From positions 7,967 through 71,966 of the forward strand of contig JAJDNS010000132.1 in the NCBI GenBank assembly GCA_022340585.1: 64,000 nt of DNA. Reading direction: 5' to 3'. This document shows, in pieces, positions 13,242 to 44,122 of this stretch. Source of the stretch: Acidobacteriota bacterium. GTDB taxonomy: Bacteria; Acidobacteriota; Vicinamibacteria; Fen-336. How positions within the stretch are numbered: the first letter of the stretch is position 1; each line of letters opens with the position of its first letter. The notes beneath the pieces are model-generated. The model was not told where the DNA came from and searched no databases. It saw nothing but the letters and a program-made list of their open reading frames with translations. Both the position numbers and the translations under genes were made by a program.

Positions 13242-13318
13242 CTGAGGACCGAACCGGCCTGCGGCCGGATGCCCTGGCCAAGGACACGATTCCGCCATGG
13301 CGGTCGTGTCCTCGGCAG
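13242..13318. repeat. Palindromic dispersed repeat, copy A (intergenic)
   Basis: Near-identical to the reverse complement of 42040-42104; core hairpin AGGACACGAT...GTCGTGTCCT. Confidence 0.8.
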
Positions 13319-13395
13319 TAGCCTTCGACTGTAGCGCACGCCGCGGGTCCCGCAAAGCGGGCCGACCGCTCGCCGCCCCTGGCCCCGGCCCGGCG

Positions 13396-14193
13396 TCAGA
13401 AAATGCGGAGAATGGGGCTCAGGAGGACGCGGGCCCCGACCGGCCCCTCCGGGCCCCGCGCCGGCTCGAAGCGCCAGAGCGGCAGGACGCGGAGGACCGC
13501 CCGCTCGTGCGAAGCGCCCATGCCGGTCTTGATCCGGGGCGTGTGGATCCGCCCGTCGGTTCCCACGATCGCCTCCACCTCGACCTCGCCCTCCTGCCGG
13601 ATCCGGCCGGAGCCGTGGTGGTACCAGGGGTCCACCGAGAGGAGGGCCTCGGGCCAGGTCTCGACCTGGCGGCTCAGCATCTTCTCGTCGACGGGAGCGT
13701 ACACCTCCCGGCTCGCCACCTCCGCCGGGGCCTCGCCAGGTGGCAGATCGAACCCAACTCCCTTCGACCCCAGATAGGCTTCCGGCGTCTGCAGCACCCG
13801 GTCCACCTGCGCCCTGACCACCGAATCGTCAGTCCCCTCTCCCAGCCCTTCGACGAACAGGAGCAGCCCGGGCCGGACCTGCTCGCACCGTTCGGCCCGT
13901 CCCCGGACCTTCGGGAGGCCGATGTTGTCGAGGGAGAAGCGAGCCGTCCCGTCCTCGAAGGCCACTGCCCGCACGTGGACGGCCACGTCACACCCGCCGG
14001 CCAGCTCCTTCCCCGGTCCGGCCTTGACCGTCTGCGCGTCGCCGCCCCCGTGCGGCAGGACCCGGACCTCGCCCTGGTATCCGGCCAGCGGCTCGGGCAA
14101 GGTCGCAGGGCCAGCCGGAGTCTGGGGGCCGGCCGACCGGCAGGCCGTCCCGAGGACGAGGAGAAGAAGCACGGCGACTTCCTGACGCGTCAT
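13396..14193 (-). CDS. Putative lipoprotein with a TonB C-terminal-like domain
   Basis: Lipobox-like LGTAC; EGEVEVEAIVGTDGRI...WRFEPA...PV. Confidence 0.7.
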   Translation of the reverse strand: MTRQEVAVLLLLVLGTACRSAGPQTPAGPATLPEPLAGYQGEVRVLPHGGGDAQTVKAGPGKELAGGCDVAVHVRAVAFEDGTARFSLDNIGLPKVRGRAERCEQVRPGLLLFVEGLGEGTDDSVVRAQVDRVLQTPEAYLGSKGVGFDLPPGEAPAEVASREVYAPVDEKMLSRQVETWPEALLSVDPWYHHGSGRIRQEGEVEVEAIVGTDGRIHTPRIKTGMGASHERAVLRVLPLWRFEPARGPEGPVGARVLLSPILRIF

Positions 14194-14350
14194 GGGTCCT
14201 CCTTCGCACACCGCGGGTTCGCCGCGGACACGGTTGGCCAACCGGGATTTCGGCGCAGTGATGCGCCTCACTCTGCTCTCCGGACCGGTTTGCTCCCCAC
14301 GCACCCCGCTTACGAAATACAATCCTCCCGTCCTGCGAAAGGAGAGATTC

Positions 14351-15286
14351 ATGAAGCGCATCCTGACCGTCGCACTCGTCACCGCACTCCTGGTTCCGAC
14401 CCTGGCCCTCGCCCAGGACGTGACCCCCTCCCGCGAGGAGGTCATCGCCCTCACCTCGGGCTGGGACGGCGAGCGATTCGAAGACGGCCGGCCGAAGGTC
14501 CCTGACGCCATCCTCGAGCGCATGAAGAACGTCAACCTCGAGGAGGCCTGGTCCGTTCTCCGCGGGAAGAAGTTCGAGTGGCAGTACGAGGGACGCTGGA
14601 AGCTCGTGCACCTCGACCCGACCGAGACCATGGTCGGCCGGGCCCTGACCGCGACTTTCGTCCCGAAGCGGCCGGACCTCGACGCCGCCCTGACGAAGAA
14701 GGGACACGCCGACGGCCACGTGGGTGGCCGCAACTCCTGGCCCATCGACATGCTGCAGAAGGGTGACGTCTACGTGGCGAACGCCTTCAGCAGCTTCGAA
14801 GGAGGCCCAATCATCGGCGGGAACCTGAGCACCGCGATCTTCAAGAACTCCGGCAATGGCGTCGTCTTCGACGGCTCGGTCCGGGACATCGCCCAGATGG
14901 AGACGATCGTCGGCTTCAAGGCCTGGGTCCGCGACTGGCACCCGTCCTACAACTACGACAACATGCTCGTCTCGATCAATCGCCCAACCCGCATCGGCGA
15001 ATCCACCGTTCTTCCCGGCGACGTGGTGCTGGCCAAGCGCGGTGGCGTGATCTTCATCCCGCCCCAGCTGGCGGAGGACGTCTGCAAGACCGGCGAGCTG
15101 GTGCAGCTCCGCGACATGTTCGGCTTCCAGCGGATCAAGGAGGGGACCTACACCCCCGGCCAGATCGACCAGCGTTGGAGCGACGAGATGGAGAAGGACT
15201 TCTCCGGGTGGCTGAACGACCACATCGACGAGCTCCCGGTCCCGAGGGAGCAGATCCAGGAGCTCCTGAAGGAGAGAACCTGGTAG
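14351..15286 (+). CDS. RraA/HMG-aldolase-like protein with signal peptide
   Basis: DGRPKVPD, GRALTA, GVVFDGSVRD, VLPGDVVLAKRGGVIFIP; SD AAGGAG. Confidence 0.8.
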   Translation: MKRILTVALVTALLVPTLALAQDVTPSREEVIALTSGWDGERFEDGRPKVPDAILERMKNVNLEEAWSVLRGKKFEWQYEGRWKLVHLDPTETMVGRALTATFVPKRPDLDAALTKKGHADGHVGGRNSWPIDMLQKGDVYVANAFSSFEGGPIIGGNLSTAIFKNSGNGVVFDGSVRDIAQMETIVGFKAWVRDWHPSYNYDNMLVSINRPTRIGESTVLPGDVVLAKRGGVIFIPPQLAEDVCKTGELVQLRDMFGFQRIKEGTYTPGQIDQRWSDEMEKDFSGWLNDHIDELPVPREQIQELLKERTW

Positions 15287-18718: not shown

Positions 18719-18721
18719 CCG

Positions 18722-19360
18722 ATGCCCGGTCAGGCGACTCGTCGCGACTCGGGTCCTCGGGACAGCGTGAGGGCCGAGGGGAACGTGAGCCTCCTCGGCC
18801 TTCTGCGTCAGACTCACATCTTCGCCTCCACCGTCAGGGAGATCCTGGAGGTGAAGCTCCTGCGTGAGGTCAGCGACGCTCCTCTCACGCTTCCCCAGTT
18901 CCACCTCCTGAAGCTGATGGCCCGTGACGGGCGGCACCAGGTGAGCGAGGCCGCGCGCTTCCTCGGGGTCAGCCCCCCGGCCGCCACCAAGAACATCGAC
19001 AAGCTCGAGGGGCTGGGTCTGATCGTCCGGGCCCGCTCGACCGGGGATCGTCGCGCCACCCTGCTCTCGGTCAGCCCGGAGGGGCGGCGACTGGTCGAGG
19101 AGTACGAGCGGAGAAAGGCGCAGCTGGTGACCCCGGTGCTGGAGCGTTTCCGGCCCGAGGAGCTGGCACAGCTGACCACCCTGATGGAGCGCTTCTCGGT
19201 GTCGCTGCTCGAACGGGAGACGCCGGAGGCGGGCTTCTGCGCTCGATGCTGCGGGTACGTGGAGTCGGGGTGTCCCGTGGACTGGCTGCTGGGCGACTGT
19301 GCGTTCCGAAAGCTCCGCGGCCCATCACCCAGAGAGAAGAAGGGGGCGCGACCGTCGTGA
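18722..19360 (+). CDS. MarR-family regulator with a Cys-rich C-terminal tail
   Basis: LTLPQFHLL, LGVSPPAATKNIDKLE, DRRATLLSVSPEG; tail CARCCGYVESGC...C. Confidence 0.85.
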   Translation: MPGQATRRDSGPRDSVRAEGNVSLLGLLRQTHIFASTVREILEVKLLREVSDAPLTLPQFHLLKLMARDGRHQVSEAARFLGVSPPAATKNIDKLEGLGLIVRARSTGDRRATLLSVSPEGRRLVEEYERRKAQLVTPVLERFRPEELAQLTTLMERFSVSLLERETPEAGFCARCCGYVESGCPVDWLLGDCAFRKLRGPSPREKKGARPS

Positions 19361-19392: not shown

Positions 19393-19716
19393 ATGAAATA
19401 CTGGCGAAAACCCCTGGACCTCGACGAGGTCAAGATTCCCCGGGGCGACGTCTACGTCGTCGTGGAGCGCTGCAAGGGCTGCGGCTTCTGCGTCGAGTAC
19501 TGCCCCAAGGACGTCCTGGCCCTCTCCGAGGAGTTCAACCGCAAGGGCTATCACCCGCCCAAGGTCGTCAAGCACGGGGAGTGCGTCAACTGCAACCTCT
19601 GCGAGATGATCTGCCCCGACTTCGCCATCTTCAGCATGCCCTCCAACGCGCCGCCCGACGTGGTGGCGAAGGAGAAGGCGTCCCACGACGCGAAGGAGGC
19701 CACCATTGAAAGCTGA
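19393..19716 (+). CDS. korD: 2[4Fe-4S] ferredoxin, delta subunit of 2-oxoacid:ferredoxin oxidoreductase
   Basis: CKGCGFCVEYCP and CVNCNLCEMICPDFAI. Confidence 0.85.
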   Translation: MKYWRKPLDLDEVKIPRGDVYVVVERCKGCGFCVEYCPKDVLALSEEFNRKGYHPPKVVKHGECVNCNLCEMICPDFAIFSMPSNAPPDVVAKEKASHDAKEATIES

Positions 19717-20863
19717 TCCCCAGGGCGTCCTGACCGGCGTCCACTACCTCGATGGCGACTTCGCATGCGGCGAGGGCGCCATGGCCGCCGGCTGCCGGTT
19801 CGTGGCCGGCTACCCCATCACGCCCTCGACCGAGGTCGTGGAGCGCATCGCCCGCCGCTTCCCGATGATGGGCGGCACCTTCATCCAGATGGAGGACGAG
19901 CTCGCCAGCATGGCGGCGGTGGTGGGGGCGGCGTGGACCGGCACCAAGACCATGACCGTCACCAGCGGCCCGGGCTTCAGCCTGATGATGGAGAACATCG
20001 GACTCGGGGCCATGATGGAGACGCCCTGCGTGGTGGTGAACGTGCAGCGGGGCGGGCCCTCCACCGGCCTGCCGACCATGGTCGGCCAGGCCGACATGAT
20101 GCAGGCTCGCTGGGGCTCGCACGGGGACTACGAGCTCATCGCGCTCTGCCCCCGGTCGCCCCAGGAGGCCTTCGACTTCACCGTCGATGCCTTCAACCTG
20201 GCCGAGACCTACCGGGTGCCGGTGCTGGTCATGATGGACGAGTGCGTGGGGCACATGACCGAGAAGGTCGTGATCCCCCCCGCCGACGAGATCGACATCG
20301 TCCCCCGCAAGCTGACGAGCAAACCCCCGGGAGAGTTCCTGCCGTACGAGACAAACGGGAGCCCGGTTCCCGAGTTCGCCCGGGCCGGGGACGGCTACCG
20401 CTTCCACACCACCGGGCTCACCCACGACGAGCGGGGCTACCCGGAGATGAGCGCGGAGTGCCAGGAGAAGACGGTGCGCCGCCTGATCGAGAAGATCCGC
20501 AGCAAGGCCGACGAGATCACCCGCTTCGTGGAGCTCGACACCGAGGGGGCCGACGTGGTGGTGGTGAGCTATGGCATCACTTCCCGGGTGGCCCGCATGG
20601 GGGTCGAGCTCGCCCGCAAGAAGGGGGTCAAGGTCGGGGTGATGCGCCTCGAGATCGTCTGGCCCTTCCCCGAGACGCGGATCCGCGAGCTCGCGAAGAA
20701 GGTCAAGGCCTTCGTGGTGCCGGAGATCAACTACGGCCAGATCGTCCTCGAGGTCGAGCGCTGCGCCGGCGGCCAGGCCGCCGCGGTCCTCGTCCCCCAC
20801 GGAGGGGGCGGGGTCCACGACCCCGAGGACATCGCCAACGCCATCCTGGGAGCAGCGAAATGA
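19706..20863 (+). CDS. korA: 2-oxoacid:ferredoxin oxidoreductase alpha subunit (substrate not determinable)
   Basis: GYPITPSTE, QMEDE, TSGPGFSLM, QRGGPSTGLPT. Confidence 0.92.
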   Translation: MKADPQGVLTGVHYLDGDFACGEGAMAAGCRFVAGYPITPSTEVVERIARRFPMMGGTFIQMEDELASMAAVVGAAWTGTKTMTVTSGPGFSLMMENIGLGAMMETPCVVVNVQRGGPSTGLPTMVGQADMMQARWGSHGDYELIALCPRSPQEAFDFTVDAFNLAETYRVPVLVMMDECVGHMTEKVVIPPADEIDIVPRKLTSKPPGEFLPYETNGSPVPEFARAGDGYRFHTTGLTHDERGYPEMSAECQEKTVRRLIEKIRSKADEITRFVELDTEGADVVVVSYGITSRVARMGVELARKKGVKVGVMRLEIVWPFPETRIRELAKKVKAFVVPEINYGQIVLEVERCAGGQAAAVLVPHGGGGVHDPEDIANAILGAAK

Positions 20864-21762
20864 GCACCGTCGTGGAGGACCTTCACACCGACGTCGACGC
20901 CAACGAGCACCCCATCGCACCCTTCCTGCGAATGGACCGGATGCCGCACATCTGGTGCCCTACCTGCGGAATCGGGACCGTCGTCAAGTGTTTCGCCAGC
21001 GCCCTCGAGCAGACGCGAGTCGACCTGGACAAGGTGTCGATCGTCTCCGGCATCGGCTGCACGGGCCGCGTCGCGGGCTACATGAAGCTCGACGCCTTCC
21101 ACGCCACCCACGGGCGGGCCATCCCCTTCGCCACCGGCCTCAAGCTGGGCCGGCCCGAGCTCCTGGTGACGGTCTTCTCCGGGGACGGCGACCTCTCCGG
21201 AATCGGGGGCAACCACCTGATCCACGCCGCCCGGCGGAACCTCGACATCCTCTGTGTTCTCGTCAACAACTTCATCTATGGAATGACGGGCGGGCAGAAC
21301 GCCCCCACCACCCCGGTGGGCGCCCGCTCGTCGACGATGCCCTTCGGCAACTTCGAGCACCCCTTCAACCTGGTGCACCTGGCCGCGAGCTGCGGGGCCC
21401 CGTACGTGGCCCGGTGGACGTCGCTCCACATTCGCCGGTTGACGAAGACCTTCGCCGAGGCCCTGAACCGCAAGGGGTTCCGGTTCATCGAGGTGATCGC
21501 CCCCTGCTCGACGCTCTACGCCCGGCTGAACAAGCTGGGCTCCGGCCTCGACCTGATGCGCTTTTACCACGACAACGCCGAGATCCGGCACGGGGCCGAC
21601 ACCCGCGACGCCGCCATCGACTTCCAGGGGCGGATCCTCTGCGGGAAGTTCGTCGACGTCGAGAAGCCAACTTTCACCGACCTGATGCACGAGCACTACG
21701 AGAAGACCCTGGGCGACCGCTACGTGCCGATGAAGCCCGAGGGAGGGTGGATCCATGAATAG
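20860..21762 (+). CDS. korB: 2-oxoacid:ferredoxin oxidoreductase beta subunit (TPP-binding)
   Basis: WCPTCGIG, SGIGC, HGRAIPFATG, GDGD..IGGNH, NNFIYGMTGGQ; ATGA overlap. Confidence 0.92.
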   Translation: MSTVVEDLHTDVDANEHPIAPFLRMDRMPHIWCPTCGIGTVVKCFASALEQTRVDLDKVSIVSGIGCTGRVAGYMKLDAFHATHGRAIPFATGLKLGRPELLVTVFSGDGDLSGIGGNHLIHAARRNLDILCVLVNNFIYGMTGGQNAPTTPVGARSSTMPFGNFEHPFNLVHLAASCGAPYVARWTSLHIRRLTKTFAEALNRKGFRFIEVIAPCSTLYARLNKLGSGLDLMRFYHDNAEIRHGADTRDAAIDFQGRILCGKFVDVEKPTFTDLMHEHYEKTLGDRYVPMKPEGGWIHE

Positions 21763-22354
21763 GACCGAGATCCGCGTCACCGGTTACGGGGGCCAGGGCG
21801 TCGTGCTCTGCGCCTACGTCATCGGACGAGCCAACGCGGTCAACGCCGGGAACCACTCCACGATGATCCAGAGCTTCGGCCCCGAAGCCCGGGGGTCGGC
21901 CTGCTCCGCGACCCTCGTCCTGTCGGACGAGGAGATCCTCTATCCCTACATCCGCCGCCCCGACATCTTCGTGGCCATGTCCCTCGAGGGATACGACAAG
22001 CACCGGGAAGAGCTGAAGCCGAAGGGCACCCTCATCTACGAGAAGGACCTGGTGCCGGCCCGGCTCAGGAAGGGCCAGCCCTCCTTCGGGATCTCCTCGA
22101 CCCGCATCGCCGAGGGGCTGGGGCGGACGCTGGTCCAGAACATCGTGATGCTCGGCTTCTTCGCGGCGGTCTCCAGGCTCGTACCCCGGGAGCAGTTCCG
22201 CGAGGCGGTGGAGGCCTCCGTGCCGACGGGGACGGAGGAGCTGAACCTGAGGGCCTTCGACGCAGGGTGGTCCTACTTCGAAGAGCACTACGGTGCCGAC
22301 GCGCCGTCCGGCGACGCGGTGGCGGCGGCGGAGGTGGTCAGCCCCGTCGCCTAG
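21755..22354 (+). CDS. korC: 2-oxoacid:ferredoxin oxidoreductase gamma subunit
   Basis: [31 protein letters not shown]. Confidence 0.9.
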
Positions 22355-22398: not shown

Positions 22399-25300
22399 GT
22401 GGACCTCGAGTCCCTGAAGACGGACACCGACCTGGAAGAGACGAAGACGACGGCCGACGACGTGGTCGAGATCGAGACGCGGGTGCAGAAGCGGGCTCTC
22501 GTCATCGGTGGGGGGATCGCCGGGATCCAGGCGGCCCTCGACCTCGCCAACGCAAGGGTGCCGGTGACCCTGGTGGAGAAGTCGCCCTCGCTGGGCGGAC
22601 GCATGGCCCAGCTGGACAAGACCTTCCCCACCATGGACTGCTCGATCTGAATCCTGGGCCCCAAGGCCCTGGATGCCGGTCGGCATCCGCTCATCGACGT
22701 CGTCACGAACGCCGAGGTCACCGGTTGCGAGGGCGAGCCCGGTGACTTCCGGATCTCCGTGCGCAAGCACCCCCGCTTCGTCCGCGAGGACCTGTGCGTG
22801 GCCTGCGGGCTCTGCGTGGACGCCTGCCCCCAGGTGGGGGGCAACGAGTTCGACGTGGGCCTCAAGGCCCGCAAGGCGATCTACCGCCCCTTCCCGCAGT
22901 CGGTCCCTGCGACCTACGTCGTCGACCGGGAGTCCTGCCTCAACTTCATGCCGCACCTGACGCCGAAGCAGCGAACGAGGCTCAAGAAGGTCGAGCGTCT
23001 GAAGCACAACAAGCGTCCCGACTACCCGCCGAACATCCTCGTCTGCGGCCACTGCGAGGCGGCCTGCGACGTGAACGCCATCGACTTCGACATGCTGCCC
23101 GAGGACCTGGAGCTGCGAGTGGGCTCGGTCGTGGTGGCCGTGGGCTTCCAGGAGTTCGACGCCCGCAAGCTCGGCAACTACGGCTACGGGCGCTTTCCCA
23201 ACGTCGTCACCAGCCTCGAGCTCGAGAGGATGCTCAACGCGTCGGGAGTCACCCGGGGCCACGTGGTCCGCCCCTCCGACGGAAAGACCCCGCGGCGCAT
23301 CGTCTTCGTCCAGTGCGTGGGGGCTCGGGGTGAAGGGGGACGCCCCTACTGCAGCCGCTTCTGCTGCATGAACGCGGTCAAGGACTCGATGCTCCTGCGC
23401 CAGCACGATCCCGAGGTCGAGGACGTCACCGTCCTCTACACAGACATGAGGGCCTTCGGAAAGGGCTTCGACGACTTCGTGAAGCGCTCCCTCGAGGAGC
23501 AGAGCGCCCGCTACCTCCGCGGCCGTCCGGCCAAGATCGAGCGGGTCGGGGAAGACGACACGCTGGAAGTCTTCGTCGAGGACACCCTCCGCCACGAGCA
23601 GCGCCGCATCCCCGCCGACCTCGTGGTCCTGTCGGTGGCGGCGGCCCCGAACGACGGCGCGCGGAAGCTGGCCGAGGCCCTCGGCATCGAGACCGACCCC
23701 TACGGCTTCATCGCCCGGGAGGACCCCGCCATCTCGGCGGTGGAGACCCGCCGGGAGGGCGTCTACGTCTGCGGCAGCGCCGTGGGGCCCCAGGTCATCC
23801 CGGACTGCGTGGCCCAGGCCTCGGCGGCGGCAGCCCGGGCCCAGCTCTACCTCAGCGGCGAGCGCGTCGACCGCACCGAGGCCCCGGTTGAGCCCATGGA
23901 CCTCTCGGGGCCCCCCCGGGTGGGCGTCCTCGTCTGCCACTGCGGCGTCAACATCGGCGGGGTTCTCGACGTCGAGGCGCTGGCGCACGAAGCGGGGCGC
24001 CTGCCCGGAGTGGTGGCCGCGAAGGCGCACCTGTTTGCCTGCTCCACCGCCGGGCAGGAGGAGATGCTCGAGCTGATCCGCGAGCACGGGCTCAACCGCG
24101 TGGTGGTGGCGGCCTGCACCCCGCGCACCCACGAGCCGGTCTTCCGCGAGGGCCTGGCCCAGATCGGCTTCAACCCGTACCTGCTGGAGATGGTGAACAT
24201 CCGGGACCAGGTCTCCTGGGTCCACGCCCGGGAGCCCGACGCGGCCCAGGAGAAGGCGCGCGCCCTCATCCGGATGGGCGTGGCCCGCGCCCGCCATCTG
24301 GAGCCGCTCCAGGAGTCGAAGGCCCCCATGACCCGGGCCGCCCTCGTGGTGGGAGGAGGCATCGCCGGCATCCAGGCCGCCACGGACTTGGCGGTGCAGG
24401 GCTTCCCGGTCACGCTGGTCGAGAAGCAGGGCCGCCTCGGGGGACGCCTGGCCGCTCCGCACCTGAAGTTCCTGTACCCGAACATGCGGCCGGCGGCGGA
24501 GGTCCTCGAGCAGAAGCTCGACCGCCTGCGCAGGAGCGGCGCCCGAGTCCTACTCAACACCGAGGTCGCCGCCGTCCGCGGCTTCGTGGGCAGCTTCGAG
24601 GTGGACCTCGAGGGGCCCGCCCCGGAGACGCTGCCGGTGGGCGCCCTCGTCCTGGCCATCGGGGCCGACCTCCACGACCCCCGGGGCGAGTTCGGGTACG
24701 GCGAGCTGCCCAACGTCATCACCAGCGACGAGCTGGAGCGGGTGTTCTGCGAGACCCCGGTCGACGGGCCCGTCGGGGACGGGCGGCCCTCCTCGGCGTC
24801 GTTCATCCTGTGCGTGGGCTCCCGTGAAAAGGAGGGCAGCTGCACCGGCTGCTCGCGGTACTGCTGTCCCACCGCGGTCAAGCAGGCGATGATGCTCGCC
24901 GAGCGGGGCATCGACACCACCGTCTTCTACCGGGACATCCGGACGGTTTCCAGCGGGGCCGAGGAGATGTACCGCGCGGCTCGGGGCATGGGCGTCCTCT
25001 TCGTGCGTGTTCCCCCCGACCAGAAGCCCGAGGTGGTGGGCGAGGGACGGGCCGAGGTGGTGCGCTGCCACGACGACCTGCTGAACCGCACCGTCGAGGT
25101 CTCCACCGACCTGGTGGTCCTCAGCGTGGGCATGCGGCCGCGCCAGCCCGACACGAAGCGCCTGCACGAGATGCTCAAGGCCAGCGTGGGTCTCGACGGC
25201 TTCTTCCTCGAGCGCCACCCCGAACTCGCCCCGGTGGAGACCGCGGTCGAAGGGGTGCTCCTGGCGGGAACGGCCCAGGGCCCGAAGGACATCGTCGACA

Positions 25301-25623
25301 GCGTGGCCCAGGCCTCGGCCGCGGCCGCGAAGGCCTCGGTCTTCCTCGCTCACGACGAGGTGACCCTCGACCCGGCGGTGGCCGAGGTCGACGAGGAGCG
25401 CTGCCGCGCCTGTGGCGACTGCGTGGAGATCTGCCAGTTCCATGCCCCCGAGCTCGTGGCCACCGCCGACGGGGGACACGTGGCCCGCATCAACGCATCT
25501 CTGTGCAAGGGCTGCGGCACCTGCGCCAGCTGGTGCCCGTCGGGGGCCATCACCTGCCACCACTTCACCGACCGTCAGATCACCGCCCAGATCGACGCCT
25601 TCTTCGCGGAGGCCGCACCATGA
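22399..25623 (+). CDS. hdrA: HdrA-like flavoprotein 1 with two tandem FAD modules; selenoprotein (in-frame TGA 22648-22650)
   Basis: GTG with GGAGG SD; VIGGGIAG...[20 protein letters not shown] continues in frame into ORF 22759-25623; ferredoxin motifs, YCSRFCC, second GGGIAG core. Confidence 0.88.
22671..22688 (+). promoter_or_regulatory. Bacterial SECIS-like hairpin of hdrA-1
   Basis: GGATGCC-GGTC-GGCATCC, 20 nt after the TGA. Confidence 0.8.
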
Positions 25624-26099
25624 CCGCTCCCGCCGCGGGCTTCACCCCCCGCCTCGTGGTCTTCGCCTGCAACTGGTGCTCCTACGCCGGGGCCGACACC
25701 GCGGGAGTCTCCCGCATCCAGCACCAGCCCCACTTCCGCATGATCCGGGTCATGTGCTCGGGGCGCATCCAGCCGGGGTTCGTCCTCCGCGCCTTCGAGA
25801 AGGGGGCGGACGGGGTGCTGGTGTCGGGGTGTCACATCGGGGACTGCCACTACCAGTTCGGGAACGAGAAGGCGATCGAGCAGTTCGAGAAGACGAAGAG
25901 CGTGGTCCGCATGCTGGGGCTCGAGGAGGGACGCCTGCGCCTCGAGTGGATCAGCGCCGCCGAGGGGGCGCGGTTCGCCCAGGTGATCGACGAATTCATC
26001 GAGCAGCTCCGAAAGCTGGGCCCGAGCCCGCTGGCGGGAAACGGCCGGTCGGCCGAAGTCCCGGCTCCCGAAGCTGAGGAGGTCGAAGCCCGTGTCTGA
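25620..26099 (+). CDS. mvhD: MvhD-like [2Fe-2S] subunit
   Basis: [39 protein letters not shown]; ATGA overlap. Confidence 0.92.
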   Translation: MTAPAAGFTPRLVVFACNWCSYAGADTAGVSRIQHQPHFRMIRVMCSGRIQPGFVLRAFEKGADGVLVSGCHIGDCHYQFGNEKAIEQFEKTKSVVRMLGLEEGRLRLEWISAAEGARFAQVIDEFIEQLRKLGPSPLAGNGRSAEVPAPEAEEVEARV

Positions 26100-27255
26100 G
26101 CTCCAGGCGATCACCGGCGGCACGCGGACCTGGGCCTGCTACGACTGCGGAAAGTGCACCGCGACGTGCCCCATCTCCCGGGCGGGGGCCGCCTACAGCC
26201 CCCGCCGCCACGTCCTCGCTGCCAACTCGGGACGGAAGACCGAGGTCATCGAGGATTCCCGTTCGCTGTTCGAGTGCCTCACGTGCAGCCTCTGCGACAG
26301 CCGCTGCCCGGCCGACGTCGCCTACACCCCGCTGGTCCAGAAGCTGAGGGAGGTGGCCTACGAGGAGGGCGTCGAGCCGGACTGTCCCCACGGCGGGGCC
26401 CTGCAGTCGCTCATGCGGATGATGGCCCAGGGCGGGACGCAGCAGAACCGCCTGGGGTGGCTCACCGAAGACCTGAAGACCACGCCGGACCGGGGAGAGG
26501 TCTTCTACTTCACCGGCTGCACGATGTACTTCGACGCGCTCTTCCCGGAACTCGAGGCACACACCCTCGACGCTACGCGAGCGGCGGTCACCCTCATGAA
26601 CAGGCTGGGCATCACCCCCGTGGTGTCACCCGAGGAGCGGTGCTGTGGCCACGACCTGCTGTGGAACGGGGATCGCAAGGGCTTCGAGGCCCTGGCTCGA
26701 TTCAACATCGACCTCGTGACGAAGAGCGGGGCCGAGACGCTGGTCGCGTCCTGCGCGGAGTGCGTGCGGACCTGGAAGCTCGACTTCGAGCCGCTCTTCG
26801 AGGGCAAGCCCCCGAAGATCGTCCACATCGCCGAGCTCCTGGCCGAGCGCCTCGGGGAGCTTCCCCTCAAGGGGAACGGCGGGCGCAAGGTGACCTACCA
26901 GGACCCGTGCCGCCTGGGGCGCCACCTCGGCGTCTACGACCCGCCGCGGAACGTCCTCGACGGCCTCCCCGGGGTCGAGCGGGTCGAGATGCCCCGGTCC
27001 GGCAAGCGGGCCCAGTGCTGCGCCGGCGGCACCTGGTCCCACTGCGACCGCTTCGCCAAGTCGATCCAGGTCGACCGACTCAAGGAGGCCCGGGCCACCG
27101 GGGCGGACGTCCTCGCCACCGCGTGCCCGAAGTGCCAGATCCACTACCGGTGCGCCATGAAGGACCCGAATCTCGGCGGAGAGATCGGGATCGAGATGCG
27201 CGACGTGGCCCAGCTGGCCGTGGAGGCGCTGGGCGACGAGAACACGTCGCATTGA
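26092..27255 (+). CDS. HdrD-like Fe-S protein (two [4Fe-4S] motifs plus two CCG domains)
   Basis: [49 protein letters not shown]. Confidence 0.85.
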
Positions 27256-27275
27256 GAGAGGGAAGGAAGGACAGC

Positions 27276-29732
27276 ATGAGTCCTGAGCCGACCAATGGGG
27301 ATCTGAGGGTCGGTGTCTTCGTCTGCGACTGCGGGCTGAACATCGCGGGAGCGGTGGACTGCGGGGCGGTGACCGCCTACGCCGAGACCCTCCCGGATGT
27401 CATCTGCGCGGTTCGCAACAAGTACACCTGCGCGGACCCCGGCCAGAACGAGATCAAGGACGCGATCCAGAAGCACAAGCTGAACCGGGTCGTCGTCGCC
27501 TCCTGCACGCCGCGGCAGCACGAGCCCACCTTCCGGCAGTGCGTGCTCGAGGCCGGTCTCAACCCCTACCTCATGGAGATGGCCAACCTCCGCGAGCACT
27601 GCTCCTGGGTCCACCCGGGCGACCGCGAGGGCGCCACCGCCAAGGCCATGGACCTCGTGGCCAGCGCGGTGGCCAAGGCGCGGCTGCTCGAGCCCCAGGA
27701 GGAGATGGAGGTGCCCGTGACGAAGCGGGCGCTGGTCATCGGCGGAGGGGTGGCCGGGATCGAGGCAGCTCTCGAGCTGGCCGACGCCGGGCACCCGGTG
27801 ACCCTGGTCGAGAAGGAAGCGTCCATCGGCGGGATCATGGCCCAGCTGGACAAGACCTATCCCACGATGGATTGCAGCATATGAATTCTCGGCCCTAAGG
27901 CCATCGATGCCGGTCGGCATCGCAACATCGAGCTGCTGACGTACTCGGAAGTGGAAGACGTTGCCGGATACATCGGCAACTTCTCGGTCAAGATTCGCAA
28001 GAAGGCGCGCTACGTCGACTTCACTTCCTGCAACGCCTGTGGCGAGTGTTCCCAGGTGTGCCCGGTGACCCAGCCGGACGAGTACCAGATGGGCCTCTCG
28101 TCCCGCAAGGCCATCTACATCCCCTTCCCCCAGGCCGTGCCGTGCTCGTACATCCTCGACATGGACCACTGCCTCGGGAACAACCCCATCGCCTGCGGGA
28201 AGTGCCAGGACGTCTGCGAGAAGCAGGCCATCAACTACGACGACGCGGACGAGGTGGTCACCCGAGAGGTCGGAGCCATCATCGTGGCCATCGGCCTCGA
28301 CGTGTACGACCCCACCGAGATGGACGAGTACGGGTACACCCGCTACGACAACGTGATCACCTCCATGGAGTTCGAGCGGCTGATCTGCGCCGGTGGCCCC
28401 ACCGCCGGCCACTTCGTGCGCCCCGGGGACGGCCAGCGCCCGAAGAGGATCGGCTTCGTCCAGTGCGTTGGCTCGCGCAACCCGAAGATCGGTCGGCCCT
28501 GGTGCTCGAACATCTGCTGCATGAACACGATCAAGGACACCCTGCTCCTGGCCGACCACTATCCCGACGTGGAGAACGTCGTCTACTACCAGGACATCCG
28601 GGCCTTCGGGAAATCGTTCGAGGACATGTTCCAGCGCTCCAAGGAGAAGGGGACGCGGTACGTCCGCGGGCTGCCCGGCGACGTCGAGGAGAACCCGACG
28701 AACGGGAACCTGCTGGTCACGGTGGAGAACACCACCAGCGGCAAGCTCGAGCGCCACGAGCTCGACATGCTCGTTCTCTCGGTCGGCGTCGAGCCCCCCA
28801 AGGATCTGGCGAAGATCTCCAGCCTGCTCACCCTCTCCAAGACGTCGGACGGCTTTCTCATGGAGTCCCACCCCAAGCTCAAGCCGGTGGACGCGCCCAC
28901 TCGGGGCGTCTACTTCGCCGGCTTCTGCGAGTCGCCCAAGGACATCAAGGACTCGGTCTGCCAGGCGGGGGCGGCGTCGTCGCGAGCGGGGGCGCTCCTG
29001 AACGCGGGCAAGATCACCATCGAGGCCATCACCAGCCAGATCGACGCCGAGCTCTGCACCAAGTGCGGGATCTGCTCCCGGGTCTGCCCCTACGGCGCCA
29101 TCACCTGGAAGAAGGGGGAGGTCGCGACGGTGGTCGAGGCCGCCTGCGCCGGGTGCGGGGCGTGCGGGGCGAGCTGCAACTTCGGCGCCATCACCATGCG
29201 CCACTTCACCGACCAGCAGCTCGTGGCCCAGGTCCGGGCCATCCTCGCCGAGAAGCCCAGGGACAAGGTGATGGTCTTCGCCTGCAACTGGTGCTCGTAC
29301 GCCGGCGGGGACATGGCGGGGATCTCGAGGATCCAGTACCCCGCGACCAACCGGGTGATGCGAACGATGTGCTCGGCCCGGGTGTCGGAGGAGATGGTCC
29401 TTGAGGCCTTCCGGGCCGGGGCTCCGGTGGTCCTCGTCTCCGGCTGCCACTACGCGGACTGCCACTATATCAACGCCAACCGCCAGACCGTCCAGCGGGT
29501 GCAGAAGCTGTGGAACACCCTCGAGCGCAAGGGGGTGCGGCCCGAGCGACTCCAGCTCGAGTGGATCAGCGCCGCGGAAGGGCAGAAGTTCGCCAAGGTC
29601 ATGAAGCAGCTGGAGGAGCTTCGTCAGACCGTGACCGACGAGGAGATCGAGACGGCGAAGGAGGCCCTCAAGCCCAAGCCGAAGAAGAAGCCGAAGCCCA
29701 AGGCCGAAGCGGCCGCGGCGGCGGCGCCGTAG
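27276..29732 (+). CDS. hdrA: HdrA-MvhD fusion protein 2; selenoprotein (in-frame TGA 27882-27884)
   Basis: [43 protein letters not shown] in frame with ORF 27951-29732; C-terminal [19 protein letters not shown]. Confidence 0.9.
27905..27922 (+). promoter_or_regulatory. Bacterial SECIS-like hairpin of hdrA-2
   Basis: CGATGCC-GGTC-GGCATCG, 20 nt after the TGA. Confidence 0.8.
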
Positions 29733-31566: not shown

Positions 31567-31582
31567 TGTGACCCAGGGCACA
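31567..31582 (+). promoter_or_regulatory. Possible CRP/FNR-family binding site
   Basis: TGTGA-N6-GCACA, one mismatch from TGTGA-N6-TCACA. Confidence 0.35.
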
Positions 31583-31672
31583 GCTGATCTGCACGGGCTC
31601 GTTAAGAATCGTGTTGCTCTGACTGTGCCGCGACCAGCCGGTCGCGTGCGTCCCTGGAATGGAGGAGGCCCG

Positions 31673-34600
31673 ATGAGCGGTCCGCGTTTCGTGCACCGGT
31701 TCCCTCGTATCCGTCGATCACGATCGCGATCCGACAGGGTCCTGGGCTTCGTTCCCGCTCTCCTGCTCGTCCTGCTCGGCGGGGCGACCAGTCAGGCTCA
31801 GGCCGCGAAGCTCGTCGAGGTCAGCGCCCTCGACAGGGACTACCTGGTCGTCCACCTGTCCGACGGCGATGTGACCCACGACGAAGGCGGCACCGGGGAG
31901 ACGATCGTCCGGTACACCCCGGAACTCGACACCGCCGCCGCGTCCCAGACCGGCAGCTGGACGATCAAGTCGGCGGCGGACGCCAGCTACGGCACCGCGG
32001 GACAGCACCCCCAGGGCTGCCATCGCAAGAAGAAGCTGAGCGGCCATGCCCAGATGGGGTGGTCCGGCAGCGACTTCCACTATGAGTACACCTACGAGCA
32101 CTGGCTCTACCTCAGGCTGCCCAGCTCCCTCAAGCAGGGCCTGACCTACACGCTCGAGATCGCCTCGGCCACGAACATCGAGAGCACCTCCGCATCGTTC
32201 ACCTTCGACGTCTTCCACAGCCGCTCCGAAGCCGTGCACGTGAACCTCGTTGGCTACGCCGCGGACGCGGCTCACAAGGCCGCCGATCTCTACCACTGGA
32301 TGGGCGACGGCGGCGCCCGCGACTACTCCACCTTCGAAGGCAACACCGTGTACCTCCTTGACGTCGACAGCGGGGAGGCCTACCCGGCGGGGCTCGTGAG
32401 CTTCTGGACGCCCGGCGGTAGCGATGTCGGCTGGTACGACCTCACAGGCTCAGACGTCTGGAACGTGGATTTCCCCGACTTCGCCAATGCCGGCATCTAC
32501 CGACTGGTCGTCGAGGGCGTCGGCTGCAGCGGGGACTTCGAGATCAGGAACGACGTCTATGCCGTCCCGTACGAGGTCGCGGTGCGCGGCTACTTCTACA
32601 TGAGGATCGGAGAGGACAACCCCACCGGCATCTCGCCAGCCCCACGAACTCCCCGCTACGTCCCGGGGGTCAGCCCGGCCTCGACCACGGTGTACCTGAC
32701 GACGATGCAGCCCTGGCATCCCGAGTGGAAGACCTTCTCGGGAGGTGACGTGTGGGACAGGCCCGACGACTGGGCGGCCTACCGCAAGGCCGGCAACCCG
32801 ACCAACCCCAGTGCCTGGGGAGGGCACTCCGACGCCGCCGACTGGGACCGCCATCTGGGCCACGTCGCGAACATCTACGACCTCCTGCTGCCCTTCCTCA
32901 TGACGAACGGCGCGATCAGCGACGACGACACGGGGATCGCGGAGAGCGGCAACGGAATACCCGACATCCTGGACGAGGCCCGCTACGAGGTGGACTTCTG
33001 GCTTCGACTGCGTGACGGAGAGGGCTACTCCCACGGCCTGACCAACCCCAACGACAGCAACGAGATGTTCCAGGCCGGGCCGACGGCCATCGCCGCCTGG
33101 GCCAATGCCGCGAATGCCGCCATGCTCGCCGACGCGTTCCGCGTCGCCGGCCTGACCACTCTCATGGACGAGTACGAGGGCGCGGCTGCCACTGCCTACG
33201 ACTACGCCGATGGCCTTGGGAATCCCATGCTCGACGAGGGCCTGGAGCTCGACGATGGCACCCTGAGGGGCCGGGATCTCAAGATGACCGCGGCCGCCTT
33301 CCTGTACAACCTGACCGGCGCGCCGGCGTACGAGGAAGTGCTCGAGGCGGAGAGCGTCTGCTCCGGCGCACCAGCGACGCTGAAGAGCAGCAGCCGAAAC
33401 CAGATCTACGGATCTGCGGCCTACCTGGTCACGCCCCAGTCAGTCCACTACCCCACGCTGCAGGCCAACATGAAGACGGCGATCCTCAACGAGGCCAGGA
33501 GCGAAGAGGCCGATCAAGCCGTCAGCCGACCCTCCCGGCGCGCGACCGACCAGACCTCCTCCTACTTCCACACCGCCCAGAACGTGCAGCGCACCATCGT
33601 CGCCCACGCCGTGGCCGATGACCCTTCCGACCGCGACTTCTTCCGCAAGGCCCTCACCCTCGAGGCCGACTGGGGTCTGGGCCGGAACCCCTTGAACATG
33701 ATACAGATGACGACGGCCTTCACGCCGCTCGAGTCCAAGCGCAGCGTCCCGGAGGCCTACACCTCGGGGATGGATGACGGGGTGGCAGGCGTTCACCCGG
33801 GGCACACGCCGTACATGAACCTCGACGACTGGGCCCCCGGAATGACCATGGGAAGGCCGTCAGCGTTGTACGAGAACAGCTACCCGACGAACGTCCCCTC
33901 CACCTGGCCCATAGGGGAGGCGTACTTCCCCTCGCGCTGGGTCTGGGCGCACAACGAGTTCACGCCGCGGCAGACCATGCGCGGGAAGATGGCATTGTAC
34001 GGATACCTCCATGGGCTCGCCGCAACCACGCTGCCCGCCAATCCCTCCCTCACGGTCGGCAGGACCGGCAACGGGAGCGGCACGGTGACATCGTCACCGC
34101 CCGGCATCGACTGTGGCAGCGACTGCAGCGAGGAGCACGCCCCCGGAACGAGTGTGACCCTCACGGCGACGGCCGACAGCGAGTCGGTGTTTGGCGGCTG
34201 GGGCGGGGCCTGCTCCGGGACGGACAGCTGCGACGTGGTCGTGGACACCGCCACGTCGGTGACGGCCGCGTTCAACACGAGCGCCTACACGCTGGGCGTC
34301 GACGACGTCTCCGTCATGGAAACCGATGCGGGCGGGACCGCGCTCGCGTTCACGGTGACGCTCACCGCCAGCACGCTCCCGGACACGTACACCCTGAGCG
34401 TCTCCACATCGGGCTCGGGCCGGGGCACGGTGACCGCCTCCCCGGCCGGCATCAGCTGCGGGAGCGATTGCCACGAGGTCTACGATGCCGCGACGACCGT
34501 GACGTTGACGCCCTCGGTGGCCAGTGGCTCCACGTTCGCGGGCTGGAGCGGAGACTGCGCGGGTTTCGGCGAGTGCACGGTCACAATGAGCGCGGCGCGG

Positions 34601-35644
34601 TCCGTGACTGCGACGTTCGACGGGCCGGCGACGGTGCCCGGCGGCCTGCGCTGGGTCGGGCGCGTGGATGCCACCGACCCCGGCGCCGTCCGCTTCGCGT
34701 GGCAGGGCGCGGGCTTTGTCGCCGCCATGGCTGGTCCCACCGTGAGCGTGAACCTGCGGACGAGCGGGGCGACGACGGTGTTCTTCCAGCCGGTGGTCGA
34801 CGGCCTCCCCGGCGATCGCTTCGAGGTGACACAGGGCGGCGTCCAGACGGTGACTCTGGCGAGCGGGCTGTCCTCGGGTGACCACGTGATCGAGCTGTAC
34901 CGCGAGACCGAGGGCATGTACGGTGTGAGCACGTTCCTGGGCTTCGCCGAGGGCACGGTCACCGGGGCGCCGGCGACCAGCGGACGGATCGTGGAGGTCG
35001 TGGGCGACTCGATAAGCGCCGGATACGGCAACCTGGGTGTCGAGCCGCACCCGGGCTGGGTCGCGAACCCCGCCTGCCACTGGACCGCGGATAACTCTTC
35101 CTGGTTCCAGACCTACGCGGCGGTCGCGGGCCGCGCGTTCGGCGCCGACGTCTCGACCGTTGCGCGTTCCGGCTGGGGCATGTCGCGGGATCGCGACGGC
35201 AGCACGAGCGGCGTGCTCTCCTCGGTGTACGGGAACGCCGTCGGCACCGAGGACACCACGCCCTGGAGCTTCGCGCCGGAGGCCAGCGTCGTGATCGTCA
35301 ACCTGGGCACGAACGACATCAGTCCAGGCGACCCCGGGACGGCCTACGAGACCGCGTACATCAGCTTCCTGCAGGACGTGCGCAGCCGGTACCCGGAGGC
35401 GTGGATCTTCGCGACCATCGGGTCGATGCTCGGCGGCTCCGAGCTCGACACCATCAACGCCCACCTGGCGAACGTGGTGGCGGCACTGGGCGACGACAGG
35501 GTCGTCACCTTCGACCTCGGGACGCAGGAGATGGGTTCGAACGGGGAGATTCCCACGGGCTGCGACTGGCACCCCAACGTCGTCGACAACGCGCGCATGG
35601 CCGAGATCATCAAGGCGCGGCTCCAGACCCACCTGGGCTGGTGA
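31673..35644 (+). CDS. Secreted multidomain CAZyme: Ig-like + GH9-like catalytic domain, two InlB-B-like repeats, CE2-like SGNH esterase
   Basis: VHVNLVGY, GGHSDAADWD, ESGNGIPDILDEA, LGRNP, HNEFT; GSGTVTSSPPGIDCG-type repeat twice; VVGDSISAGYG, NLGTND, CDWHP. Confidence 0.8.
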   Translation: MSGPRFVHRFPRIRRSRSRSDRVLGFVPALLLVLLGGATSQAQAAKLVEVSALDRDYLVVHLSDGDVTHDEGGTGETIVRYTPELDTAAASQTGSWTIKSAADASYGTAGQHPQGCHRKKKLSGHAQMGWSGSDFHYEYTYEHWLYLRLPSSLKQGLTYTLEIASATNIESTSASFTFDVFHSRSEAVHVNLVGYAADAAHKAADLYHWMGDGGARDYSTFEGNTVYLLDVDSGEAYPAGLVSFWTPGGSDVGWYDLTGSDVWNVDFPDFANAGIYRLVVEGVGCSGDFEIRNDVYAVPYEVAVRGYFYMRIGEDNPTGISPAPRTPRYVPGVSPASTTVYLTTMQPWHPEWKTFSGGDVWDRPDDWAAYRKAGNPTNPSAWGGHSDAADWDRHLGHVANIYDLLLPFLMTNGAISDDDTGIAESGNGIPDILDEARYEVDFWLRLRDGEGYSHGLTNPNDSNEMFQAGPTAIAAWANAANAAMLADAFRVAGLTTLMDEYEGAAATAYDYADGLGNPMLDEGLELDDGTLRGRDLKMTAAAFLYNLTGAPAYEEVLEAESVCSGAPATLKSSSRNQIYGSAAYLVTPQSVHYPTLQANMKTAILNEARSEEADQAVSRPSRRATDQTSSYFHTAQNVQRTIVAHAVADDPSDRDFFRKALTLEADWGLGRNPLNMIQMTTAFTPLESKRSVPEAYTSGMDDGVAGVHPGHTPYMNLDDWAPGMTMGRPSALYENSYPTNVPSTWPIGEAYFPSRWVWAHNEFTPRQTMRGKMALYGYLHGLAATTLPANPSLTVGRTGNGSGTVTSSPPGIDCGSDCSEEHAPGTSVTLTATADSESVFGGWGGACSGTDSCDVVVDTATSVTAAFNTSAYTLGVDDVSVMETDAGGTALAFTVTLTASTLPDTYTLSVSTSGSGRGTVTASPAGISCGSDCHEVYDAATTVTLTPSVASGSTFAGWSGDCAGFGECTVTMSAARSVTATFDGPATVPGGLRWVGRVDATDPGAVRFAWQGAGFVAAMAGPTVSVNLRTSGATTVFFQPVVDGLPGDRFEVTQGGVQTVTLASGLSSGDHVIELYRETEGMYGVSTFLGFAEGTVTGAPATSGRIVEVVGDSISAGYGNLGVEPHPGWVANPACHWTADNSSWFQTYAAVAGRAFGADVSTVARSGWGMSRDRDGSTSGVLSSVYGNAVGTEDTTPWSFAPEASVVIVNLGTNDISPGDPGTAYETAYISFLQDVRSRYPEAWIFATIGSMLGGSELDTINAHLANVVAALGDDRVVTFDLGTQEMGSNGEIPTGCDWHPNVVDNARMAEIIKARLQTHLGW

Positions 35645-43024: not shown

Positions 43025-44122
43025 CTAGGGCGTCGCGCTCGGCGCGGTGACGGCGGCGGCGAGGCTCTGGCGAACCTGCCGCTGCCTCCGGAAGGCCACG
43101 ATCACGTTGAACAGGATCACACCCACTCCGGCGACCCCGGCGGCCATCAGGAGGAACTTGCTGGCCTGGTTGAGGGGGACGTCCCAGGCGGGGTCGAGCT
43201 GGATGAAGCCGAGCTGGCGCAGGTAGATGGGCACCGCGACCCCCCGGGAGAGAACGCAGATCAGGATCACCAGGCTGGTCACCAGTCGGATGACCACTTC
43301 CTTGACGACCTTCGTGCCATAGGCCCCGACGTAGATGCCGAAGAGCGACCCCGCGTACAGCAGCATCGTGAGGCGCAGGTCCACGAAGCCCGCGAAGACG
43401 TAGTTCAGCGCCCCGAAGGCCCCCATGAACATGGCCAGGAACAGCTCGGTACCCGTGGCCACCGCCGTCGGCACGCCGAAGACGTAGATCATCGCGGGGA
43501 CCCCGATGAAGCCGCCGACGCCGATCGTCCCCGCGAGGTAGCCGGTGGCCAGACCCACCGCCATCAGGACCCAGAGCGAGACCCTGACGTCCGAGACGGG
43601 AAAGTGGATGAGGGGGAAGAGCCGCAGCTTCGACAGCGCCTCCGCAATCCTCAGGGAGGGACCGGCGGAGTCGTCCGAGGACTGCAGGATGTCCCTCAGC
43701 ATGCTCAGGGCCACCAGCGAGAGGATGCAGACGAAGACCAGGCTGATGTAGAGATTGGCGGCCGCGCCCTTGGCTTGGCCGTGGCTGTCTCCCATGGCGA
43801 ACAAGGAGCTGTTGATCCAGACCGCGAGGCGGATGCCCGCGAAGGAGGTCAGGACCAGGAAGACGCCGAGCTTCCGGTCGACGTTGCCCATCTCCCCGTG
43901 CTTGCGGGCCCCCATCATGGCCTTTCCGAACTTGTGGGTGATGTTGCTCCCGACCGCGATCACCCCGGGCACTCCGAGGTTCATCATTCCGGGGGTCATG
44001 AAGAACGCACCCCCGCTACCGATGAAGCCGCTCAGGGTCCCGCCGATGAAGCCCAGCAACACGACCTGAAGGGCGTCTCCGAGCCCGAGAGTGATGAAGT
44101 CCTTGTAGATGAGCTCAGGCAA
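43025..44122 (-). CDS. TSUP (TauE/SafE) family transporter
   Basis: SGFIGSGGAFFMTP, GTIGVGGFIGVPAMIY, ATGTEL. Confidence 0.88.
   Translation of the reverse strand: MPELIYKDFITLGLGDALQVVLLGFIGGTLSGFIGSGGAFFMTPGMMNLGVPGVIAVGSNITHKFGKAMMGARKHGEMGNVDRKLGVFLVLTSFAGIRLAVWINSSLFAMGDSHGQAKGAAANLYISLVFVCILSLVALSMLRDILQSSDDSAGPSLRIAEALSKLRLFPLIHFPVSDVRVSLWVLMAVGLATGYLAGTIGVGGFIGVPAMIYVFGVPTAVATGTELFLAMFMGAFGALNYVFAGFVDLRLTMLLYAGSLFGIYVGAYGTKVVKEVVIRLVTSLVILICVLSRGVAVPIYLRQLGFIQLDPAWDVPLNQASKFLLMAAGVAGVGVILFNVIVAFRRQRQVRQSLAAAVTAPSATP

Follow-up and report, generated by a model that had tools for sequence, protein, structure and literature searches.

HdrA is one of the selenoprotein families found in both bacteria and archaea, in which selenocysteine (Sec) is present in a CxxU motif (PMC1794560, PMC13188914), and both multiple hdrA copies and hdrA-hdrA fusions have been described in Deltaproteobacteria (PMC1794560). 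Here, we analyzed a 64,000-nucleotide (nt) stretch of DNA from an Acidobacteriota bacterium (contig JAJDNS010000132.1; hereafter the window), in which two hdrA-type genes carry an in-frame UGA at the same codon: a fused double HdrA at 22399-25623 (copy 1) and an HdrA-MvhD fusion at 27276-29732 (copy 2). Judging from the sequence comparisons below, copy 2 very probably encodes a full-length HdrA-MvhD protein whose UGA is decoded as Sec, the hairpin downstream of it being the apical part of a bacterial (SelB-type) Sec insertion sequence (SECIS) element.

Known Sec-containing HdrA or HdrA2 proteins (CxxU, NF040770) have been described in Methanococcales, Deltaproteobacteria and Clostridia, for example in Syntrophobacter fumaroxidans and Moorella thermoacetica. 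The proteins found here belong to the same family and have the Sec at the same position (Cys197/Sec197). According to PMC9012536, Cys197 of one HdrA coordinates the N-terminal [4Fe-4S] cluster that belongs to the other HdrA of the dimer. For Methanococcus maripaludis HdrA, Sec197 and a neighboring Cys have been discussed as a possible selenylsulfide relay between the cluster and flavin adenine dinucleotide (FAD), with the precise role left unresolved in PMC13518236. The described Sec-HdrA genes also have an MvhD fusion or an MvhD gene in the neighborhood and, in Deltaproteobacteria, several hdrA copies, including an hdrA-hdrA fusion, in one operon, and this is likewise the case here. However, the host lineage is different, no adjacent frhA/frhG hydrogenase genes were seen and a 2-oxoacid:ferredoxin oxidoreductase is located upstream instead, and the MvhD and GlpC-like subunits are Cys forms. 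Copy 1 also resembles the fused or tandem HdrA pseudo-dimers described in anaerobic methanotrophic (ANME) archaea and the Moorella MetFV-HdrABC-MvhD complex in that its modules are complementary, one with the Cys197-type residue and the other with the N-terminal cluster domain (PMC9012536). It differs from ANME HdrA3/4 in that the module order is reversed, with the Sec-bearing module first, and in that the residue is Sec rather than Cys. The Sec-HdrA of this locus adds one more member to a well-known selenoprotein family, and the data reveal no new mechanism.

With regard to the RNA element, the identity of the GGUC hairpin is reported to be important in the SECIS of fdhF (PMC4489274), bacterial SECIS hairpins are described as having an invariant G in the loop (PMC4607533), and a bulged U in the upper stem together with an 11-nt spacing are given as features of E. 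coli fdhF (PMC8659212). Like the enterobacterial fdhF element, the hairpin of copy 2 is in frame and directly downstream of UGA, with a short GC-rich stem and GGUC in the apical loop.

The HdrA-MvhD gene and its in-frame UGA

27276..29732, + strand: predicted HdrA-MvhD fusion (HdrA2-type) selenoprotein gene, 818 residues, Sec as residue 203 (single-TGA frame, NF040770, 5odc_A/5odc_D, Pfam FlpD)
27882..27884, + strand: UGA, predicted Sec (U203), second position of the CxxU motif (opposite Cys197 of 5odc_A; TGA in the 18 closest homologs)
22399..25623, + strand: paralog, fused double HdrA, 1074 residues from GTG 22399 (predicted start), predicted Sec at residue 84 (frame reading, Pfam, NCBIfam)
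22648..22650, + strand: UGA, predicted Sec of the paralog (motif pattern, frame reading)

The ATG of copy 2 at 27276 is preceded by a purine-rich ribosome-binding stretch, and by direct reading the frame closes at TAG 29730-29732. If TGA is taken as U, all 818 residues lie in one frame and U203 is the sole odd codon; genetic code table 11 breaks it into two frames, 26154..27884 and 27951..29732. An earlier note on this DNA had described a DCSI-TGA-ILGPK break at 27882-27884 and the same break in copy 1. Both were confirmed by direct reading and by a degenerate pattern search, which detected D-C-S-I-TGA-I-L-G-P-K at two sites in the window (22636-22665 and 27870-27899) and at none in 100 shuffles.

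The same note had taken the gene for an HdrA-MvhD fusion, and structure and family searches agree with this assignment. HdrA of the HdrABC-MvhAGD complex (PDB 5odc_A) aligned with the product at E 2.8e-242 (residues 10-656 to 4-649), and MvhD (5odc_D) matched its C-terminal tail at E 3e-36 (residues 663-779), where Pfam FlpD was also found (2.7e-42, residues 665-781). The HdrA2 profile NF040770 scored 1140.5 bits (cut-off 1100; positions 1-776 of 777). Other Pfam domains were Pyr_redox_2/FAD_oxidored at 150-189, which is the FAD-binding Rossmann motif, an inserted ferredoxin domain (Fer4_16) at 252-315 and a C-terminal ferredoxin (Fer4_7/Fer4) at 588-641. In the pairwise alignment, U203 (D-C-S-I-U) stands at Cys197 (D-C-S-I-C197) of 5odc_A, and Cys-form homologs have TGC or TGT in this column. 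Judging by the gene content examined, the host is not a methanogen; electron bifurcation or heterodisulfide reduction would be candidate activities of the product.

The hairpin downstream of UGA

27905..27922, + strand: putative SECIS apical hairpin of copy 2, 7-bp stem (27905-27911 with 27916-27922) and GGUC loop 27912-27915 (minimum free energy (MFE) and centroid structure; conservation, covariation)
22671..22688, + strand: putative SECIS apical hairpin of the paralog, GGAUGCC-GGUC-GGCAUCC (sequence, folding)
27891..27902, + strand: minor hairpin GGCC-CUAA-GGCC with 4 bp, in the interval from UGA to the SECIS stem (folding prediction)

Direct reading gave the hairpin of copy 2 as CGATGCC (27905-27911), GGTC (27912-27915) and GGCATCG (27916-27922), separated from TGA by exactly 20 nt, so that its position and spacing were correctly given in the earlier note, as were the synonymous differences flanking it in the two copies (TCG ATC vs AGC ATA; ATC CTG vs ATT CTC). 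The hairpin lies within the reading frame and codes for I-D-A-G-R-H-R. In copy 1, the corresponding segments are GGATGCC (22671-22677), GGTC (22678-22681) and GGCATCC (22682-22688). Both hairpins were the minimum-energy as well as the centroid structures when each stretch was folded alone. Their significance comes from comparison with other sequences and not from thermodynamics alone. The smaller GGCC-CUAA-GGCC hairpin was confined in the alignment to the clades of copy 1 and copy 2 (codons K-A or R-A) and was missing in most other hairpin-bearing rows. It therefore lies outside the conserved element and is probably incidental.

Homologs with UGA and homologs with Cys in the phylum

We searched 401 genomes of the phylum with protein residues 140-420 and obtained a match in 121. 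The 18 best matches from other genomes (64-87% identity) each had one TGA, at the U203 codon; Cys forms appeared from 57% identity down. The rows used for counting came from 30 returned loci and 60 further listed matches, of which L068 (no motif, contig end) and L101 (no motif) were dropped. The remaining set, with the two window copies among its UGA rows, comprised 37 UGA rows and 52 Cys rows, which align without gaps.

All seven base pairs were present at the fixed position in 31/37 UGA rows and in 0/52 Cys rows, and six of seven in 3/37 and 1/52, respectively. Three of seven pairs were found in 3/37 UGA rows, which form one group (L065-L067), and in 14/52 Cys rows. The GGTC loop occurred in 34/37 UGA rows and was absent from all 52 Cys rows, and the mean energy of the 22-nt window was -10.8 kcal/mol in UGA rows versus -3.6 kcal/mol in Cys rows, GC content being alike in the two sets. 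The hairpin is likewise missing from two Cys-form HdrA genes of the host's own family. Applied de novo to the 37 UGA rows without selection, RNAalifold placed 5 pairs in the expected helix. The earlier note had held that its proposal would fail if the hairpin were not conserved in UGA-bearing homologs or were equally conserved in Cys-encoding ones. Neither was the case: we found conservation with at least six pairs in 34 of the 37 UGA rows and, among Cys rows, neither a complete stem nor a GGTC loop, with 49.0% of cells paired, no more than in controls with slid partners.

Wider sample and metagenome contigs

A scan of one genome per species with the pattern [FY]-P-x-x-D-C-x-x-TGA-I-L-x-P gave at least 120 loci, among them L161, which is cut by a contig end and was dropped, 108 labeled as bacterial and 11 as archaeal. 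Among the loci listed, 107 bacterial-labeled rows were tabulated, L141 being left out here for its short flank: at the position of the standard hairpin, 47 had 7/7 pairs and 15 had 6/7, and 59 had the GGTC loop. Bacterial rows outside the standard register mostly fold as well, either into a 7-bp stem with an AGGU loop 5 bases upstream or into a stem of 5-6 bp whose loop is GGC. The 11 archaeal-labeled rows among the loci listed, mostly Asgard, had at most 5/7 pairs, and GGTC was found in 0/11; archaea would use a different SECIS system.

At least three other hairpin types were seen in UGA-bearing HdrA genes (L113-L232): xGAGGCC-GGUC-GGUCUCC, which codes for E-A-G-R-S; CUGGUCG-AGGU-CGGCCGG, located 5 nt further upstream and coding for L-V-E-V-G-R; and GACGC-GGC-GCGUC, coding for D-A-A-R. 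The hairpin types largely track clades of the gene tree. Two labels did not agree with the tree: L118, labeled Bathyarchaeota, is a bacterial-type gene with an AGGU-type hairpin, and L176, labeled Bacteroidales, groups with Asgard rows and has no hairpin. Either mismatch could reflect mis-binning or lateral transfer.

Combining the samples gave 145 bacterial-labeled UGA rows (143 distinct), in which 82.4% of cells were paired, compared with 22-54% when the partners were slid. Neither the pairing nor the covariation score observed for the 143 distinct rows was reached in any of 500 shuffles. In 51 distinct Cys rows, 49.0% of cells were paired, with slid controls at 26-50%.

In a reverse test, metagenome contigs were searched for TGA, TGC or TGT followed at the proper distance by the hairpin, one stem pair of which was left free (Y, R). 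There were at least 122 matches, and among those listed 121 had TGA and one had TGT. In these 122, the free pair was C-G in 60, U-A in 52, U-G in 10 and C-A in none, whereas independent variation would give about 26 C-A by arithmetic from the counts. The sole TGT match (L280) has an intact GGUC hairpin and is likely a recent Sec-to-Cys conversion with a remnant SECIS.

Covariation and synonymous sites

The earlier note had proposed a covariance analysis of the region after UGA across homologs. This was carried out on the bacterial-labeled UGA row alignment, and the pairs that varied were as follows.

Pair 29-36 (second from the loop): C-G 64, U-G 35, U-A 29; Ala (GCC) to Val (GUC) matched by synonymous CGG to CGA
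Pair 27-38: U-A 85, G-C 11; Asp/His to Glu/Ser (two amino-acid changes)
Pair 24-41 (outer): G-C 79, C-G 3

Covariation at pair 29-36 is far stronger than at the outer pair, on which the earlier note had relied (G-C in copy 1, C-G in copy 2). That difference is real, but it represents a single event, and sister genomes have an unpaired C-C. Copy 2 belongs to a well-supported clade of 6 rows, in which the outer pair is C-G in 3 and unpaired C-C in 3, while all sister groups have G-C. It is likely, from these rows, that a change of Met to Ile broke the pair and that a change of Pro to Arg restored it, in one compensatory event. Because this is one event in a 6-row clade with half of the rows still unpaired, the outer-pair swap alone is weak evidence.

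The tree showing this clade was a quick IQ-TREE tree built from trimmed flanking residues with the hairpin codons masked; 55/153 of its inner branches were unsupported. For pair 29-36, parsimony on this tree gave 27 changes among C-G, U-G and U-A and 17 between C-G and U-A, as a rough count that we take, given the weak tree, only as "several" switches. A FastTree count of 44 state changes was discarded since it was inflated by noise from upstream non-coding residues.

Codon usage provided another line of evidence. GC at third codon positions (GC3) is 0.94 in both genes. In copy 2, GAT accounts for 5/44 Asp codons, GGT for 5/62 Gly codons and CAT for 1/14 His codons, and all three rare codons occur together in the hairpin, the gene's only CAT being that of the hairpin; the corresponding numbers in copy 1 are 2/66, 6/92 and 3/25. 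That three rare codons ending in T fall within a run of five in each paralog points to selection on the RNA. The three congeners that have both genes possess identical stem arms; the pairing G is kept in them, and the Arg codon that follows differs among them in its third base (CGC, CGG).

Sec machinery of the host genome

The host genome (6.26 Mb, 231 contigs) contains selB (355.5 bits against a cut-off of 242.25), selA (533 bits against 267.9) and selD in two copies, one of them with an in-frame TGA of its own. Its tRNA-Sec scored 71 bits (gathering score 47), and ARAGORN gave TCA as the anticodon. A tblastn search detected no further TGA-bearing HdrA in this genome beyond the two genes, and a search for Sec-type formate dehydrogenase gave 5 matches, none of them over the cut-off or with an internal stop. 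Throughout the genome, open frames were scanned for TGA and, 18-36 nt later, a stem of 6 bp or more carrying a GGTC loop; of the 14 matches, only those in the two HdrA genes had a plausible protein context.

The Sec-type selD (L019, G000:C141:29123-33043, minus strand of the locus) has its in-frame TGA in S-S-S-G-U-A-S-K-L-G-P. By sequence reading, a possible 6-bp stem with a GGUCC loop follows about 26 nt after TGA; the MFE structure given by RNAfold favors a different pairing.

Interpretation of the UGA and the hairpin

Conservation that is specific to UGA-bearing genes, covariation and the presence of the Sec machinery together support the view of the earlier note that the conserved hairpin reflects selected recoding. 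SelB with Sec-tRNA(Sec) would bind the hairpin as the ribosome nears UGA, and the SelB-bound Sec-tRNA(Sec) would then outcompete release factor 2 at this codon, so that RNA and protein constraints would overlap at the hairpin. The Sec at the Cys197 site may serve as a ligand to the N-terminal [4Fe-4S] cluster of the partner subunit or form, with Cys, a redox relay from the cluster to the bifurcating FAD. The paralog at 22399-25623 would rely on this codon as well, with a SECIS of the same type.

Several observations weigh against decoding as Sec through this hairpin. The support for selenium insertion and SelB binding is comparative throughout. Unlike the fdhF element, the stem is a perfect 7-bp helix with a 4-nt loop, has no bulged U and follows a 20-nt spacer. 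A bulged U and an 11-nt spacing are not known to be general to bacterial SECIS elements, and the distance from UGA to the hairpin is known to vary among other bacterial selenoprotein genes. GGUC is located here at 31-34 from the U of UGA, about 9 nt further than the 22-25 given for fdhF (PMC4489274). Single-sequence folding was unexceptional in this 69% GC DNA, with z scores of -1.9 and -1.1 for 66 nt and of -1.9 and -2.5 for 28 nt; among 200 shuffles, 3 to 28 folded as well as the hairpin stretches. Rfam gave no match at the gathering score in the whole window and none at E up to 10 in 27780-28020. In the phylum, UGA and Cys rows are separate subfamilies (at most 57% identity), and ancestry could explain part of the contrast between them; in addition, the group L065-L067 (from genomes G042, G007 and G026), which makes up 3/37 UGA rows, is without a hairpin at the standard position. 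Its peptide there is M-V-E-F-G-R-H-Q, with no obvious strong alternative hairpin. Finally, 45/107 of the bacterial-labeled rows among the loci listed had fewer than 6/7 pairs in this register and apparently have other hairpins, and RNAalifold placed no consensus pairs when all 145 bacterial-labeled UGA rows were taken together, since this alignment mixes hairpins of several types that differ in register.

One alternative to Sec decoding, which we regard as very unlikely, is that UGA is read through without selenium, for example by near-cognate decoding or a genome-wide code change that gives Cys or Trp, with the hairpin merely stimulating this process. Downstream structures can stimulate stop-codon read-through generally, and this established effect is the basis for such a view. 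However, TGA is an ordinary stop elsewhere in the cluster, since copy 1 itself terminates with TGA (25621-25623), and the genome has tRNA-Sec with the anticodon TCA, selA, selB and selD. Moreover, the position is that of a redox or ligand Cys in homologs and a known Sec site of the family, and GGUC is the loop identity reported for the SelB-dependent fdhF element.

Still less probable is that the hairpin arises only from conservation of a peptide, D-A/V-G-R-H, within this HdrA subfamily and does nothing as RNA. The peptide is indeed strongly conserved in UGA rows, and the relatedness of these rows, which form subfamilies apart from the Cys rows, inflates the contrast between the two sets. A peptide constraint, however, does not account for fourfold and twofold degenerate sites fixed as GAT, GGT and CAT against a background of 94% GC3, for the co-occurrence of GCC to GUC with the synonymous CGG to CGA and the lack of C-A among the 122 metagenome matches listed (about 26 expected), for the replacement of U-A by G-C at pair 27-38 with two amino-acid changes, or for the association of the hairpin with TGA in 121 of these 122. 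A nonsense mutation, by which the gene would be a pseudogene or consist of a 202-residue piece and a piece restarting at GTG 27951, agrees with the table 11 split of the frame and has a similarly negligible probability, as the same TGA codon occurs in the paralog, the three congeners, the 18 closest homologs and at least 108 bacterial-labeled species genomes, both halves are otherwise intact with 94% GC3, the split would cut the FAD-binding domain and the Sec machinery of the genome is complete.

A broader reading can also be offered, which is tentative and in our view rather doubtful. GGAUG(C/U)C-GGUC-G(G/A)CAUCC would be an HdrA-specific SECIS module that lies outside the Rfam models, is kept near letter-for-letter at a fixed 20-nt spacing, dictates the D-(A/V)-G-R-H peptide and has spread with the gene by lateral transfer. 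In the paralog, the [4Fe-4S] cluster of the second module would have Sec as its single selenolate ligand or relay, supplied from within the same molecule, giving an asymmetric Se-containing bifurcating unit coupled to 2-oxoacid:ferredoxin oxidoreductase.

With regard to annotation, table 11 would give both genes as split or truncated open reading frames (ORFs), whereas with the correct reading two large redox enzymes are recovered and the cluster can be recognized as a module beside 2-oxoacid:ferredoxin oxidoreductase that depends on selenium and is probably electron-bifurcating. The hairpin is also a clean natural case of overlapping RNA and protein coding constraint, in which rare codons are fixed and the choice between Ala and Val is tied to a synonymous Arg codon. 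What is known of Sec decoding in bacteria is unchanged by the finding, and the comparative data are unusually clean; the alignment could become a covariance model with which mis-annotated HdrA selenoproteins may be found.

The paralog and neighboring genes

18719..19360, + strand: MarR-family regulator upstream of the cluster (Pfam MarR 5.1e-14)
19706..22354, + strand: 2-oxoacid:ferredoxin oxidoreductase, alpha 19706-20863, beta about 20863-21762 (start approximate), gamma 21755-22354 (Pfam POR_N, PFOR_II, TPP_enzyme_C, POR)
25623..26099, + strand: free-standing MvhD/FlpD iron-sulfur subunit, Cys form, no TGA (Pfam FlpD 4.1e-51; NCBIfam VhuD-like match)
26092..27255, + strand: HdrC/HdrB-like (HdrD/GlpC/TfrB-like) Fe-S protein with CCG domains, no TGA (Pfam CCG 2.5e-27, Fer4_17)
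From 29748, + strand: small zinc-ribbon ORF after the HdrA-MvhD gene
31568-35644: 1358-residue protein with InlB B-repeat, CE2_N and GDSL lipase/esterase domains

Module 1 of the paralog has the CxxU motif and the inserted ferredoxin and is without the N-terminal cluster domain and the C-terminal ferredoxin. Module 2 has both of the latter, with R-P-A-A-E in place of D-C-S-I-U and hence no Cys at the Cys197 site. The fused protein thus looks like a built-in asymmetric pseudo-dimer, as far as can be judged from its domains. For the product of 26092-27255, NCBIfam matches to TfrB, GlpC and HdrC were partial and every one was below the cut-off. The composition of the cluster, with a pair of Sec-HdrA proteins, MvhD, an HdrBC-like protein and 2-oxoacid:ferredoxin oxidoreductase, suggests by inference only a ferredoxin-linked, flavin-based electron-bifurcating complex. 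The protein at 31568-35644 is directly downstream and unrelated to the Hdr cluster.

Some other candidates in the window were rejected. An ORF at 19765-21762 (665 residues) is a composite with GC3 of 0.67 if taken at face value and was replaced by the alpha gene, in another frame, and the beta gene. Two read-through candidates at 12076-14751 and 43025-45802 (both - strand) gave translations in which separate genes seemed to be joined via junk, as judged without a family search, and were dropped as further selenoproteins.

Distribution and origin

The Sec-HdrA gene pair was found in 0/12 genomes from other families of the order. Within the genus, both genes occurred in 3/5 other genomes (G401, G402 and G404; 95-98% identity) and were not found in G403 and G405. 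The patchy occurrence of the cluster differs from the near-universal presence of selB among the same relatives, where it was over the cut-off in 27/31 with the host genome counted. The nearest other orthologs (82-87% identity) sit in other families of the phylum, and the nearest named segments were in metagenome-assembled genomes labeled Planctomycetales, Planctomycetaceae and Phycisphaerae. Lateral acquisition of the gene pair by the genus is a reasonable inference. The element GGAUG(C/U)C-GGUC-G(G/A)CAUCC was present in records labeled Desulfobacterota, Chloroflexota, Planctomycetota, Holophagae, Calditrichia, KSB1, Krumholzibacteriota, Glassbacteria, Armatimonadetes and WOR-3.

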